This document shows, piece by piece, positions 6,676 through 51,937 of a DNA stretch of 64,000 nt. Position numbers and translations under genes: made by a program. Source of the stretch: a phage. The stretch is from sequence record PV874203.1; one strand, 5' to 3'. Each line of letters begins with the position of its first letter. Position 1 is the stretch's first letter. The notes below the pieces were generated by a model. The model searched no databases. It saw nothing but the letters and a program-made list of their open reading frames with translations, and was not told the origin of the DNA.

Positions 6676-8212
<1,537 letters not shown>

Positions 8213-8506: not shown

Positions 8507-9253
8507 TTAGAATGGGCTATCGTTGTCGTCTTCGTAAGTAGAAGCAGGCTCTTTATCAATCGTAGGGATTGAAGGAGTAGCTTCTTTCTGTTCTGTTTCA
8601 GAAGCACGAGTAATTTCACGACCAGCCAGAGGCATGTTCTTAGCATCATTAGCTTGAGTAAGCAGGTTGCGCTGGAACGGGAACATCAATTGATAGGATG
8701 CTACGTTCTCATCGGTTTCAGCATATGGTTCGAAGAATACCAGAGGACTACGAGCTTCACCAACTGCTGCACGATATTTGGTTGGGATTGGAGAAATGGT
8801 TTTGATGGAGTTTTTAACTTCACCGGCTTTGTTAGTGTAAGAGTTAACCAGAATGTTAACAGGCTGGCCTAACAGAACATCCTTGAACCAAGACAGATCA
8901 CCTTTCAGTGCTTGAATACTTGGGTCAATCATCTTGCAGAGATCAAGAATACCAGAGTTCTTAGCTCGTGGGTTTACATCATAGCTCTTGAACTGGCAAG
9001 CCGGACGTGGTTCTAATGCCTTACCATCGGAATCTTTACCAGTAGCATCAACACCAATCAGCTCGAAAGCCAAATCCATACGGAAAGCTGGATTCTTAGG
9101 AGTTACTGCTTTGGTCTTCGGGTCAATCCAAGGGTCTCGATTGTGAACACCCAAACCTACTACACGAACGATGCGTGCTTCGTACTCACCATCAGGGATG
9201 ATGTCGTAGTTGGATTTACGGGAAGAAGTTGCGATAGTTGGAATCATAGACAT
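8507..9253 (-). CDS. Putative ssDNA-binding protein (T7 gp2.5-like)
   Basis: Acidic C-terminal tail ending in Phe (YEDDNDSPF), as in SSB tails; sits in the replication neighbourhood. Fold not verified. Confidence 0.45.
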   Translation of the reverse strand: MSMIPTIATSSRKSNYDIIPDGEYEARIVRVVGLGVHNRDPWIDPKTKAVTPKNPAFRMDLAFELIGVDATGKDSDGKALEPRPACQFKSYDVNPRAKNSGILDLCKMIDPSIQALKGDLSWFKDVLLGQPVNILVNSYTNKAGEVKNSIKTISPIPTKYRAAVGEARSPLVFFEPYAETDENVASYQLMFPFQRNLLTQANDAKNMPLAGREITRASETEQKEATPSIPTIDKEPASTYEDDNDSPF

Positions 9254-9313
9254 ATTTTAATTTCCTTATTTAATTTTGAAAGATTGTTGCTCTCTTTGAG
9301 CGGTTATGTATAA

Positions 9314-9322
9314 TATACATTA
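9314..9322 (-). promoter_or_regulatory. TAATGTATA motif (putative phage promoter element) upstream of the SSB-like gene
   Basis: Minus-strand TTATAATGTATATTA about 60 nt upstream of the start at 9253; same 9-mer recurs in gene orientation at 16338-16346 and 60218-60226. Confidence 0.35.
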
Positions 9323-9687
9323 TAACTTTTGTAAGATAAGTATCATTTTATTGGTAGTAGATACTCACTAATGGTAATGTATATAAGGTAGAGTTAGAGA
9401 ATAACTCTTGCACGGGACTGACGACGATAAGGCGCAGACGACAATCTCTCATAAGTTTGTAAGAAATTGAGAGACTACCGGAAGGGCAGGAGCCACCTGC
9501 GAGATAAAAATAGAGAATTAAGGAATCCTTGATTTAGGTTGTAGGGACTCCTAGGGACTTTGATTCTCTATTTAAAAGAATATTAATTACTTACTACCTA
9601 AATAATTAACTAGCTTACTTAAACCAAATTCAAGAATAATAGATAAAAAGATTATTCCTAAGAAAGCTAAGAAGTAAAGGATATAAG

Positions 9688-9852
9688 TTACCATTCAAGT
9701 AAACCTTTAAAATTAGATTTTTCTACTATTCTCTGATAATGAAGATTAGAATCAGCTTGTTTCTTTAACATCTCATTATACCTATCTCTGATAGAGTCTT
9801 TATAAACTACAGGTTCTTTAAATAATGAGATCTTGTTCTTTTCTTCTTTCAT
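9688..9852 (-). CDS. Hypothetical small protein
   Basis: Track ORF 9688..9936 trimmed to an internal Met to avoid overlap with the phosphoesterase gene. Confidence 0.3.
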   Translation of the reverse strand: MKEEKNKISLFKEPVVYKDSIRDRYNEMLKKQADSNLHYQRIVEKSNFKGLLEW

Positions 9853-20726: not shown

Positions 20727-20798
20727 AACTCTCTCCTGTAAAATACAAATTCTTATTGTACTCTATATACATTTGAGAGTTATCATATCTACTACCAA

Positions 20799-38245: not shown

Positions 38246-38503
38246 TTACTTAAAGATGAAATGTATAACTGCATCATATGCTTTAGACAGAAGCCAACCT
38301 ATCGGATAACAGACTCCTGCCAGTATTGAGATGGGCCATAACATAATTAAGATCACAACCATCATCTCATCAGGTTCAGAGCTGGTAGACCCTGTTGTAA
38401 TGACCCCTTTTAGTAGACCTTTCTTGTATAGCAGTTTCAGCACTAAAACAGAAAGGAATACTCCAATAAAGTAAACTGAGATAAAAATATCAAGTAAACC
38501 CAT
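38246..38503 (-). CDS. Hypothetical small membrane protein (holin-like topology, unproven)
   Basis: 85 aa with 2-3 hydrophobic helices. Confidence 0.4.
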   Translation of the reverse strand: MGLLDIFISVYFIGVFLSVLVLKLLYKKGLLKGVITTGSTSSEPDEMMVVILIMLWPISILAGVCYPIGWLLSKAYDAVIHFIFK

Positions 38504-47868: not shown

Positions 47869-48204
47869 GGGCAATTTCTTGCCTTGTATGTTTTTCATCG
47901 TACCCGATGAATTGAAGTATACATTAATCAGTGAGGGATGCAATAGGGTAAAGCAAACTATTTTAAACTTTTTCACTATAGGGAAGATAAAGGAACGGGT
48001 GCGCGTGATACATCATAGAAAACGGCTTGTAAAGCGATATTTAGCGGCCTAAAACGCACTATAGCGAGCTAAAAGGGAGTAAGGTATACAATCACCTTAG
48101 AAACGATAAGAGCCTCACTAGGAGGCTTATAGGAAGGATTTAGAGCATTAGATAGATTATGACCATAGGCATGACTACGGCACAATATAGGAGAAAGATT
48201 AAGC

Positions 48205-49767: not shown

Positions 49768-50435
49768 TTTTGTTACTCCTTATATAAATTCAATCAACTG
49801 TTACCAACTATATATTAAAGGAAAAGACCGTCAACCAATTATTTTCTAACTTTCTTGCATCCTACTGAAAACTAAAGGAATTTAATTTACCTAACTTTCT
49901 ACATTCAGGGGATTATCTTACTTCTTATTGTTACTTTATAACACTACGGATGTAACGCTATCGCTACGGGTAGCAGACCAACATACCAGGACACGGAGAG
50001 CACACAACCGCAGAACAGACCACGGGGAAACATAGCCAGATAGTGCGGTAATAATATACCACTTAAATAATTAGTTAACTCAAACATCAAAGACGTTCGC
50101 TACGCTCACAAAGGCACGCTGAAAAAGGAAAGAATAAACATCAATAAAAACAATCATTCTTAAAAGAATTATTAAAAGAAACATAATCATCCACTTAATT
50201 AATACATACATACGACGCTACTTCGTAGCTGTGCATTCCATGCACCCATCATATATTGCACTCATAATCATTACTATTGAAACTATTTACACTCAAACTA
50301 TGGGGAGTGGTGACCATCATTAATGGCTTTATTAGCAGACTAATCAGTTGGCCTGTACAGTGTTAGCCTTTCTCTCACTCTTTAAAGGGGTACTAAATAA
50401 ACGGGTAGGTAATGTAATGAGTAGTATACACGGGG

Positions 50436-50474
50436 AAAGAATAACGGGGAGTAGGCACGGGGAAAAGCTGGAAC
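50436..50474 (+). repeat. Three closely spaced ACGGGGA(A/G) direct repeats in the divergent intergenic region
   Basis: TATACACGGGGAAAGAATAACGGGGAGTAGGCACGGGGAAAAGC; a further CACGGGGAAA copy near 50021. Confidence 0.45.
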
Positions 50475-50617
50475 GTTGATAGGGATGTAAAGGCGTTGCC
50501 AATAACCCTTTTTTATTTGAGGACTCCCCCTTTTTTAACAATTCGCCGCGGAGGGCCTAGCCCCACTCGGTCAAATCAGAATTTTAAACACTTATATATA
50601 AGGTTGAAAGAGAACTT

Positions 50618-50782
50618 ATGTGGAAAATTAAGTTAATCATTAAGCAATTCAAATGTGATCATGAGTACTATCGGATACGCAAAGCTTACGGGGATGAAAG
50701 AGTTCACACCCTTTATAAGTCCACTTGGAGATGTAGTAAATGTGGTAAGCTTAAGCACAGCACATGGATGGATAGGCCTTAA
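50618..50782 (+). CDS. Hypothetical small zinc-ribbon protein (54 aa)
   Basis: Hand-translated ORF with CDHEYYR ... CSKCG; first ORF of the plus-strand block. Confidence 0.3.
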   Translation: MWKIKLIIKQFKCDHEYYRIRKAYGDERVHTLYKSTWRCSKCGKLKHSTWMDRP

Positions 50783-50910
50783 CATGACATAGCCTTTATG
50801 AAGGTGCCTTAACATGAAGACTCCTTTAAACCTCTTCCCTTTATCAGCGCACACGGGTTGTTGGTATGAAGGTGCCTTTACGGGTTGGTCTTATGATGTG
50901 CCCTTTATAC
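50775..50910 (+). repeat. Cluster of short direct repeats (GCCTTAACATGA x2, TATGAAGGTGCCTT x2, related TATGATGTGCCCTTTA)
   Basis: Read directly between two tiny ORFs at the start of the late block. Confidence 0.4.
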
Positions 50911-51064
50911 TTTTATTCAGAGGATAGAATATGAAGTTTTTAAAAGAACTACACTCCTTGATTTATAAGGACATAGTGTACTCAGTATCCCGCAATGCAT
51001 GGTTCTACCAAAAAGGTGGCAACGGTGAATGGGTAGATTGAATCTTATTCAGAGGAGATGAATT

Positions 51065-51319
51065 ATGAATTTAGTATTAGATTTTTTATCAGAGTTGGTG
51101 CCTCGGTTTAGAACGGAGACATATGCTTTCGTAGTCAACAGTGACTCTGAAGAAGGGATGGAAGCTACGTGCTTAGGTCGTCTTGTTGACCTAGATGATG
51201 ATACAGATTTCGATATTACAATTGATGTGAGTAGTTTAGGTTGGCTCTTCTTCAGAGCATTCCTCACTTACAAAGTAGAAACGTATAAAGATTACAGCAA
51301 GGGAGATACAGATGAATAA
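51065..51319 (+). CDS. Hypothetical acidic protein
   Basis: 84-aa ORF. Confidence 0.45.
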   Translation: MNLVLDFLSELVPRFRTETYAFVVNSDSEEGMEATCLGRLVDLDDDTDFDITIDVSSLGWLFFRAFLTYKVETYKDYSKGDTDE

Positions 51320-51881
51320 TTTAATCAAAGCGATGGATCTTAATGAGTATAATTCACAGCTATGTCGCTCTGGTTGTAGCTTACAACATTTAGAAACTAT
51401 GGGAAATGTTTCAGGGTTAGCTGTACAAGATTTATATAGTGGAAGTATTCTTAAACCAAATATTACGGAGAACAAAAACATGTTAGATTTGATTCATACT
51501 ACTCGCCCTGATTCTAAAACTAAAAAACAACCATCTACTCTGGAAGTAGTTGAATACGAATCTACTAAACATGATCACCTCCCTGACTATGCTCGTGCAA
51601 TGATTGAGATGATTGAAGAAGCTGAATATGAAATGCTCCATGATTACATTACCTCCAAAGATGAGTGGCATCGTGATGTTCGAATCGAAGAAGACGGTAC
51701 AGAAACAATTACGTGGATTCACAAGAGTGAGTTAGTAGACGACGCACTGCGAGACTACGAAAAATTTTTGGTCGACGGCTCTATTGTTTTAGAGGGAGAG
51801 AAGGGTGTAGAACTTCCGTGGGAGGGTGAGACGATTGCTTTAGGTAAGATGTTCAACCTGTCCGTTGGTGATTGTAAGTAA
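51312..51881 (+). CDS. Hypothetical protein
   Basis: 189-aa ORF. Confidence 0.5.
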   Translation: MNNLIKAMDLNEYNSQLCRSGCSLQHLETMGNVSGLAVQDLYSGSILKPNITENKNMLDLIHTTRPDSKTKKQPSTLEVVEYESTKHDHLPDYARAMIEMIEEAEYEMLHDYITSKDEWHRDVRIEEDGTETITWIHKSELVDDALRDYEKFLVDGSIVLEGEKGVELPWEGETIALGKMFNLSVGDCK

Positions 51882-51887
51882 TGTTTA

Positions 51888-51909
51888 CCTCCCTTGGGAG
51901 GCTTTTTGT
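51888..51909 (+). terminator. Putative rho-independent terminator / attenuator
   Basis: Hairpin CCTCCC-TT-GGGAGG followed by CTTTTTGTG. Confidence 0.4.
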
Positions 51910-51937
51910 GTTGTTGATAATGTAGAAGGAGTATAAA

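Follow-up and report, generated by a model that had tools for sequence, protein, structure and literature searches.

A candidate non-coding RNA gene with a predicted gp36 promoter opposite the SSB-like gene of phiEco32-like phages

Does the gap between the single-stranded DNA-binding protein (SSB)-like gene and the metallophosphoesterase gene of a phiEco32-like phage hold a gene of its own? The window examined in this study, i.e., the whole stretch of 64,000 nucleotides (nt) that was analysed (sequence record PV874203.1), belongs to a Kuravirus, a phiEco32-like podophage of Escherichia coli. An initial annotation, made from the letters alone, had pointed out a promoter-like motif on the plus strand and an inverted repeat in this gap, and had suggested a small RNA driven by the motif. 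Comparison with related phages supports such a predicted RNA by its putative promoter, a 5'-terminal hairpin (P1), G·U pairs and a terminal hairpin (P4). We propose that a free-standing gene for a non-coding RNA occupies the plus strand of the gap, in divergent orientation to the SSB-like gene, and that its product acts in trans. As a whole, this is the best explanation of the data and we hold it with moderate confidence. That an RNA gene exists here at all appears likely from the sequences, and the binding of a protein in trans as its mode of action is put forward with considerably less confidence than either.

Over the 2 kb around the gap, the sequence shares 98.5% identity with Escherichia phage MN05. 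The same region matches 99 records of phiEco32-like podophages (Gordonclarkvirinae; genera Kuravirus, Suseptimavirus and Nieuwekanaalvirus), which form the record set for the counts of modules and 3' domains given below, and the alignment consists of 16 distinct sequences from these three genera. The true non-coding gap measures 333 bp (9254-9586). The stretch that had been described as free of open reading frames (ORFs) is non-coding up to this point and runs beyond it into an ORF of 35 amino acids (aa) that is annotated in relatives.

The promoter elements of the gap

The motif TAATGTATA is present on the plus strand at exactly the position reported initially (9375-9383), and is aimed away from the genes, all nearby genes being located on the minus strand. 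The window contains five exact copies against 0.75 expected, a number that was reached in none of 100 shuffles. The corresponding consensus element tAATGTAtA is published for six promoters used by the RNA polymerase (RNAP) in combination with the phage sigma factor gp36, with transcription starting 6-8 nt downstream. These promoters (P6, P13, P26, P40, P58 and P68) are each named for the gene that they precede. In the structure of the P68 open complex determined by cryo-electron microscopy (2025), gp36 reads -14A, -13A, -12T and -11G, and its C-terminal domain reads -37G and the T opposite -34A; transcription is strongly reduced or lost when these contacts are mutated.

The plus-strand copy in the gap has all six contact bases, and numbering in the style of P68 puts the predicted +1 at A9390. 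The 13-nt element TTGGTAGTAGATA in its -35 region is identical to that of P68 and lies at the same distance from AATGTATA. The composite TTGGTAGTAGATA-N12-AATGTATA occurs twice in the window, i.e., in the gap and in the P68 homologue at 20766-20798 (minus strand), with 0.03 occurrences expected. The two promoters differ in their setting: P68 heads a protein-coding operon on the gene strand, whereas the predicted promoter in the gap faces the opposite way and is followed by no ORF. Across the 16 aligned genomes TGGTAGTAGATA and GTAATGTATATA are invariant and the 10 nt between them vary. In ES17-type phages the upstream context is different, yet TAATGTATA, -37G and -34A are all retained. The copy thus shows every sequence feature of the gp36 family that is checkable here (-10-like bases, -35-region bases and positional conservation), and is predicted to represent a previously unlisted, fully conserved phage-sigma-factor promoter that opposes the neighbouring genes. 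It is absent from the published promoter tables of phiEco32 and SU10, which contain six gp36 promoters each, a comparison that does not cover the original mapping papers.

On the opposite strand, the gap carries the known gp36-dependent middle promoter of the SSB-like gene, which is named P40 in the phiEco32 table and P37 in the SU10 table, where the equivalent sequence is placed 'between CDS37 and CDS38'. Its core TAATGTATA runs from 9322 to 9314, with -37G at 9344, -34A at 9341 and a predicted start at about 9307. Both promoters are arranged back to back, their -37 bases being located at 9353 and 9344. The initial annotation had missed the minus-strand motif (9314-9322), the -35-region element of the plus-strand promoter (9351-9363) and two hairpins described below (9390-9408 and 9509-9572).

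Several other copies and variants of these elements were observed. P40 is embedded in a near-palindrome, in which TTATGTATA on the plus strand (9304-9312) abuts the minus-strand TAATGTATA. A single mismatch to the consensus falls on the -14 contact of this sequence, which overlaps the beginning of the SSB-like mRNA and is probably no promoter. A further exact copy of TAATGTATA at 47918-47926 (minus strand), in a region with large minus-strand ORFs, has neither -37G nor -34A and may be non-functional as a promoter. Cores with the sequence AATGTATA are also found at 38260 (plus strand) and 43311 (minus strand). In phage ES17, a basic 47-aa ORF (MKFNHKYAATEKARAYVTARQSRVYKRQSPTNNSKETFVWTKPTTFR; L005:682-825, minus strand) is located between P40 and the plus-strand promoter, and the same layout is present in L020 (UViG 3300045988_017452). 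The start codon of this ORF in ES17-type phages overlaps the -35-region element of the plus-strand promoter, its product matches no PHROG family, and its expression would require minus-strand transcription through the RNA gene.

Structure and conservation of the predicted RNA

The RNA predicted downstream of the plus-strand promoter would be about 185 nt long, with a 3' end at about 9573-9577 as judged from the terminal hairpin, its UAUUU tail and the limit of conservation. Folding of the candidate transcript had been suggested initially as a check, and the full RNA indeed folds better than shuffled sequences (z of -3.4 in the window and of -2.3 in phiEco32). P1 begins exactly at the predicted +1 in all variants. 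In two of its pairs both partners have changed (UA/GC and CG/UA/AU), and a GC pair has become GU in seven of the 16 sequences. For all tested helices together, the covariation score amounts to 0.076 versus 0.034 after shuffling (reached by none of 500 shuffles), and 99.1% of the cells pair versus 37-49% when the partners are slid. Hairpin P2a contributes a compensatory change from U-A to C-G in ECBP2 (CUG/CAG to CCG/CGG).

The pairing also bears on the strand. As plus-strand RNA, 124 of 128 cells pair in P1 and 240 of 240 in P4, compared to 101 of 128 and 207 of 240 for the minus strand, where the numbers are lower because G·U pairs turn into A·C. Two invariant G·U pairs are present in P4 when read as plus-strand RNA. 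Single A-to-G changes that pair only as plus strand are found in P4 (XT32), in an apical UAGG/CCUA hairpin (three phages) and in P2b, where U-A becomes U·G in UViG 017452. In these alignments, the G·U pairs and the substitutions that create wobble pairs speak for the plus strand as the strand of the predicted RNA. The GC skew is positive on the plus strand over 9340-9550, which is the sign of the sense strand of the genes of this phage.

The 3' part of the RNA is the most constant. A 97-nt domain (9484-9580) is conserved with at least 90% identity in all 99 records and with at least 99% identity in 61, and in the sampled records with annotation the match never coincides with an annotated feature. 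The mean pairwise identity is 0.93-0.995 at 9494-9553, versus 0.77-0.96 in adjacent coding sequence, and conservation between clades stops within a few bases after P4, at about 9573. This domain comprises hairpin P3, an A-rich linker and P4. The apical part of P4 (34 nt) includes a AAGGAAUCCUU palindrome and two TAGGGACT direct repeats spaced 10 nt apart. P4 as a whole is a stable hairpin, with a folding energy of -23.5 kcal/mol for the plus strand versus -18.2 kcal/mol for the minus strand. For the region of P3, minimum-energy folds contain a long-range helix (UUGCAGG/CCUGCGA) and a mini-hairpin (GGC/GCC) instead. We rejected these in favour of P3 because a C/A polymorphism breaks the mini-hairpin in nine of the 16 sequences but falls in the loop of P3; an A-to-T change in one metagenomic copy also breaks the long-range helix. 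As a separate observation, 11 of the 12 nt of ATTTAGGTTGTA, in the apical part of P4 (9532-9543), are complementary to TACTACCTAAAT (9592-9603), where the 35-aa ORF has its 3' end, with one G-C pair becoming G·T in phiEco32 and SU10. Either a read-through transcript or the mRNA of the minus strand could adopt this alternative pairing, or the match could be due to chance.

Between P1 and the 3' domain, the RNA carries a module that exists in two mutually unalignable versions, bordered by the conserved sequences UUGCA(G/C)G and ACCG(G)AAGGG. Type A comprises the hairpins P2a and P2b and is found in 12 of the 99 records (the window, MN05, the ES17 group and ECBP2), and type B, with one hairpin and a variable loop of 12-13 nt, is found in phiEco32, SU10 and the remaining aligned genomes. 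Type A is present in both Kuravirus and Suseptimavirus, and the window-type P1 is combined with both modules (in the window and in ev_rybdy3, respectively); therefore, the parts have been reshuffled by recombination. The inverted repeat TCTCTCA/TGAGAGA of the initial annotation is identical with P2b. It exists as a hairpin with a 7-bp stem and a 16-nt loop, though at 9445-9451 and 9468-9474 rather than at about 9447-9476, and being confined to the type-A module it is no conserved hallmark of the element. By itself the repeat is not beyond chance, since the 447 bp inspected contain 13 inverted repeats of at least 7 bp and the module that holds it folds no better than shuffled sequences (z -1.3).

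The element is non-coding. The ORF list has no plus-strand ORF of at least 30 aa in the predicted RNA, and the indels among relatives (+1, -2 and -1 nt) occur in combinations that preserve no reading frame. The possibility that one of the strands of the invariant domain encodes a hidden protein was considered and rejected in view of stop codons, an open minus-strand frame without in-frame start, and the frame-breaking indels.

In the collections searched, the element is confined to phiEco32-like phages. It matched no Rfam family, with E-values of up to 10 considered for the window and up to 5 for four relatives with both module types, and neither a transfer RNA nor a transfer-messenger RNA was detected in the gap. 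Nothing similar occurs in the plasmid collection or in 5,426 E. coli genomes. An origin from the host or a plasmid, as well as mimicry, was rejected, as the matches obtained are at chance level (21 nt in E. coli genomes, E = 8; one plasmid, E = 0.6), and the same is true for 28-nt matches in Vibrio ICP1 phages (E = 0.6). The window contains no paralogue of the RNA element, which has only its promoter element in common with P68, and scans of viral and metagenome collections yielded near-identical copies only. In three distant contigs, in which the SSB-like protein is 67-69% identical, the intergenic region is short and different and has neither TAATGTATA nor the RNA element. These distant relatives (L028-L030) have another conserved block in common, GGAAGCATCTAGCAAAGCTAGCATATCAAAGCTAAGCTAAGCTATATGCTTTATCC, which takes the place of the P40/RNA region at about 60-130 nt ahead of the SSB-like gene and may be a promoter or regulatory element of their own.

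Neighbouring genes and genome context

The features of the gap and its surroundings are collected in Table 1. The label 'SSB-like' of the left-hand gene, taken over from the initial annotation, agrees with one record in which a single-stranded DNA-binding protein is annotated, but is backed by no family library: the protein has no Pfam match, and its sole family assignment is a PHROG of unknown function. Most alignment columns of the hairpin in the leader of its mRNA are invariant, with one loop position differing in EP335.

Table 1. Coordinates of the predicted RNA gene, its promoter and the surrounding features in the window
Feature	Position	Strand	Remark
Predicted non-coding RNA	9390..9576	+	about 185 nt; 5' end from promoter geometry
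-35-region element TTGGTAGTAGATA of predicted promoter	9351..9363	+	G9353 = -37, A9356 = -34
-10-like element TAATGTATA of predicted promoter	9375..9383	+	A9376 = -14, A9377 = -13, T9378 = -12, G9379 = -11
P1, 5'-terminal hairpin	9390..9408	+	AGAGUUA-5 nt-UAACUCU; -6.0 kcal/mol, z -3.45
Exchangeable central module, type A	9409..9484	+	contains P2a and P2b
P2a	9418-9425 with 9432-9437	+	
P2b	9445-9451 with 9468-9474	+	inverted repeat of the initial annotation
P3 hairpin	9486..9500	+	GCAGG-AGCCA-CCUGC; stem invariant, sole variable position (C or A) in loop
P4 terminal hairpin	9509..9572 (9509-9523 with 9558-9572)	+	15 bp, followed by UAUUU
P40 promoter	9307..9346	-	known gp36-dependent middle promoter of SSB-like gene; P37 in SU10 table
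Leader hairpin GCTC-TCTTT-GAGC	9289..9301	-	5' leader of SSB-like mRNA; context, outside RNA gene
SSB-like gene	8507-9253	-	phi32_40 homologue; left of gap
34-aa ORF	9348-9452	-	no family; only in type-A variant
35-aa hydrophobic ORF	9587-9694	-	phi32_41 homologue, PHROG 24970; borders RNA element, outside it
Metallophosphoesterase gene			right of gap, beyond 35-aa and 54-aa ORFs
Phage sigma factor gp36 gene	7308-7952		

The 35-aa ORF is annotated in MN05, phiEco32, SU10, SU7 and EP335, and is intact in 10 distinct sequences. Its changes are mostly hydrophobic-for-hydrophobic, and its variable sites are distributed over codon positions 1, 2 and 3 as 12, 6 and 11. Together with the next small ORF, it is absent from Paul, Bas86, XT32, EK010 and ECBP2, where the RNA element adjoins the phosphatase gene and likewise stops short of it. 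On the other side, SU10 and some relatives have an HNH endonuclease gene inserted just downstream of the SSB-like gene and before the spanin genes (L002:1607-2020, minus strand, in phage SU10), an insertion that is lacking in the window.

At a larger scale, gene orientation and GC skew flip from minus to plus near 50-51 kb (region about 50000-51900), and a copy of TAATGTAGA with -37G and -34A at 51918-51926 (plus strand) matches the published late promoter P6. Based on this match and on the switch in orientation and skew, the window seems to cross the position of the phiEco32 genome ends, in which case the source record is permuted relative to phiEco32.

Mode of action, alternatives and significance

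From the features described above we infer how the RNA would be produced, where it would end, how stable it would be and how it would act. RNAP with gp36 would recognise the P68-type promoter (9351-9363 and 9375-9383), which gp79 may stimulate by analogy with P68, and transcription would start at about A9390. The transcript would contain P1 at +1, followed by the exchangeable module and the near-invariant 3' domain (P3, A-rich linker, P4), and termination or processing at P4 would release an RNA of about 185 nt with structured ends. A hairpin at the 5' end and a long hairpin at the 3' end are expected of an RNA that is stable against RNA decay in E. coli. Such an RNA would be made alongside the middle genes, at the time when the replication genes are expressed, and would act in trans, with the invariant 3' domain most probably bound to a protein of the phage or host and the central module in an accessory or specificity role. 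That the 3' domain is almost unchanged suggests that a particular sequence and shape is recognised, the simplest candidate for the partner being a protein, and the lack of long complementarity elsewhere in the window points in the same direction; therefore, we favour a trans-acting RNA with the 3' domain as its working part.

Several observations weigh against this proposal. P3 and P4 are invariant and hence provide no covariation support. P4 is not a canonical intrinsic terminator, given its AU-rich stem, long apical part and short U-tract, and the tail on the minus strand (UAUUUUUAU) is better than that on the plus strand. The terminator scan made no call at P4; in the SU10 list, terminators consist of a GC-rich hairpin with a run of T behind it. 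Two substitutions fit the minus strand better, i.e., a U-to-C change at the base of P2b in ECBP2 and another in the type-B module of Paul. The diversity is shallow, with 16 distinct sequences to which the metagenome scan added just two more, both near-identical. The search for antisense targets in the window gave a longest complementarity of 12 nt, which is near chance (three such matches versus about 1.4 estimated). A sponge of the CsrB/RsmZ type is not apparent either, with six GGA motifs versus 4.1 expected (p = 0.19); the idea of a CsrA sponge was rejected as the motifs are not enriched and several of them lie inside stems. Finally, we found no RNA sequencing study of phiEco32-like phages in the literature.

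One alternative is that the locus works in cis. The plus-strand promoter would then oppose read-through from the middle genes upstream, with P4 as a two-way terminator, or the structured 190 nt would form the leader of a long antisense transcript that crosses the middle genes in the direction of the late genes, and the effect would be to limit upstream transcription that reaches the SSB-like gene or to shut down the middle genes late in infection, by collision of polymerases or cleavage of double-stranded RNA. The orientation of the promoter, opposite to every neighbouring gene and the same as the late genes, would suit such a unit, as would the ability of P4 to fold on both strands with a better U-tract on the minus strand. 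Transcripts from upstream probably do cross the gap, given that SU10 lists no terminator in it, the 47-aa ORF of ES17-type phages, located between the RNA gene and P40, would need minus-strand transcription through the element, and weak plus-strand termination at P4 makes read-through plausible. However, neither collision nor antisense pairing needs a 97-nt domain that is 90-100% identical in 99 genomes, nor a covarying 5' hairpin with G·U pairs specific to the plus strand. Moreover, the conserved part ends before the upstream ORF without coding overlap, and the sequence downstream of it is not conserved between clades. A unit of this type is thus possible but unlikely. The same near-invariance would suit DNA sites bound by proteins, as expected for a replication origin that is activated or primed by transcription, similar to T4 oriF and oriG, the primary origin of T7 or ColE1 RNA II. 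In this case the transcript, or negative supercoiling between the divergent promoters, would open the duplex and prime the leading strand. A middle-type promoter next to the SSB-like gene, a roughly central position (about 36.8 kb of the 77.5-kb phiEco32 genome), a purine-rich RNA (59%) with positive GC skew, AT-rich DNA between the promoters (9310-9369, 22% GC) and after P4 (9580-9639, 20% GC), and short direct repeats (two copies of TAGGGACT at 10-nt spacing) would all be compatible with it. Yet, the covariation and wobble pattern of P1 argue for selection at the level of RNA, not DNA, many relatives use the AT-rich stretch after P4 as coding sequence and others have replaced it, and two copies of a repeat do not make an iteron array. 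The cumulative GC skew has no turning point here beyond a local feature; skew was rejected as an origin signal, as it simply tracks gene orientation. In the literature examined, no mapped origin was found for this phage group, and overall we consider an origin at this locus very unlikely.

It is also conceivable that no functional plus-strand RNA is made. The conserved block would then serve the polycistronic mRNA of the minus strand or the DNA itself, for instance by terminating or processing the transcript or by binding a protein upstream of P40, and the plus-strand motif would be a silent or incidental mirror of P40. The minus strand folds at least as well (z -4.5 versus -3.4), and the invariant P3 and P4 do not separate the strands by covariation. 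An incidental copy, on the other hand, would not keep six contacts and a 13-nt P68-type element in 16 genomes while a 10-nt spacer varies freely, nor would it outlast the upstream rearrangement of the ES17 type, and the wobble pairs favour the plus strand. The omission of the plus-strand copy from both published lists of six promoters (phiEco32 and SU10) would fit an incidental motif, but these lists name promoters by the gene that follows, so that a promoter without a gene has no place in them. Of all readings weighed here, this one is the least probable.

Comparison with known RNAs and origins supports no simple assignment of the predicted trans-acting RNA, which lacks those defining features of each that were open to checking. 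The OOP RNA of phage lambda has 77 nt, overlaps the 3' end of cII and regulates cII through RNase III. Similar to OOP, the element in the gap is a small unit with its own (predicted) promoter, opposite to the flanking genes, beside replication-related genes and with a hairpin at its end. Unlike OOP, the RNA would be about 185 nt long and composed of several domains with a near-invariant 3' domain, has no evident antisense target, and stops before the upstream ORF: the unit ends at about 9573-9577 and the ORF at 9587, so that an overlap of the OOP type is absent. T4 oriF and oriG and the primary origin of T7 are primed by transcripts from phage-specific promoters, and require a promoter and an unwinding element but no conserved folded RNA. 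They share with the gap a phage-specific middle-type promoter and a non-coding transcript near replication genes, both predicted in the gap, and AT-rich DNA nearby, whereas in the gap the structure and sequence of the RNA are the most conserved parts. In the case of the HK022 put RNA and antitermination leaders, a conserved stem-loop RNA likewise follows right after the promoter and precedes a terminator-like hairpin, yet there is no sequence or Rfam similarity to put, and the RNA in the gap has no downstream genes that antitermination could serve. The pRNA of phi29, a podophage with a prolate head, and bacterial 6S RNA are structured RNAs of about 175-185 nt that act with proteins, with RNAP as the partner of 6S RNA. 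Their size is similar, but Rfam gives no match to either and the RNA in the gap would be a string of hairpins rather than the rod with central bubble of 6S RNA. In addition, phiEco32-like phages use a terminase for packaging and possess defined terminal repeats. As no described RNA family matches, the RNA is best described as a new family within the phage-encoded small RNA genes. A bolder proposal, which we judge quite unlikely, is that it represents the modular RNA component of a ribonucleoprotein of phiEco32-like phages. Here, the 3' domain would dock on a protein of the phage or host, e.g., of the middle-stage transcription or replication machinery, and the horizontally exchanged module (type A or type B) would set the specificity for a host factor or defence system to be bound or neutralised; in a variant of this idea, it would be a structured primer RNA that defines a replication origin.

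PhiEco32 is a model for the reprogramming of E. coli RNAP by a phage through its own sigma factor, and the gp36 promoter set has so far been taken as six, all ahead of protein genes. If the prediction is true, a seventh conserved promoter that drives a non-coding RNA would be a new output of the gp36 programme, and a P68-type promoter with a natural short transcript would provide a ready test substrate. The 3' domain, at least as conserved as neighbouring coding sequence, implies strong selection for its function among phages that are being developed for therapy, and the exchangeable central module provides a natural experiment from which the function of the RNA could be worked out.

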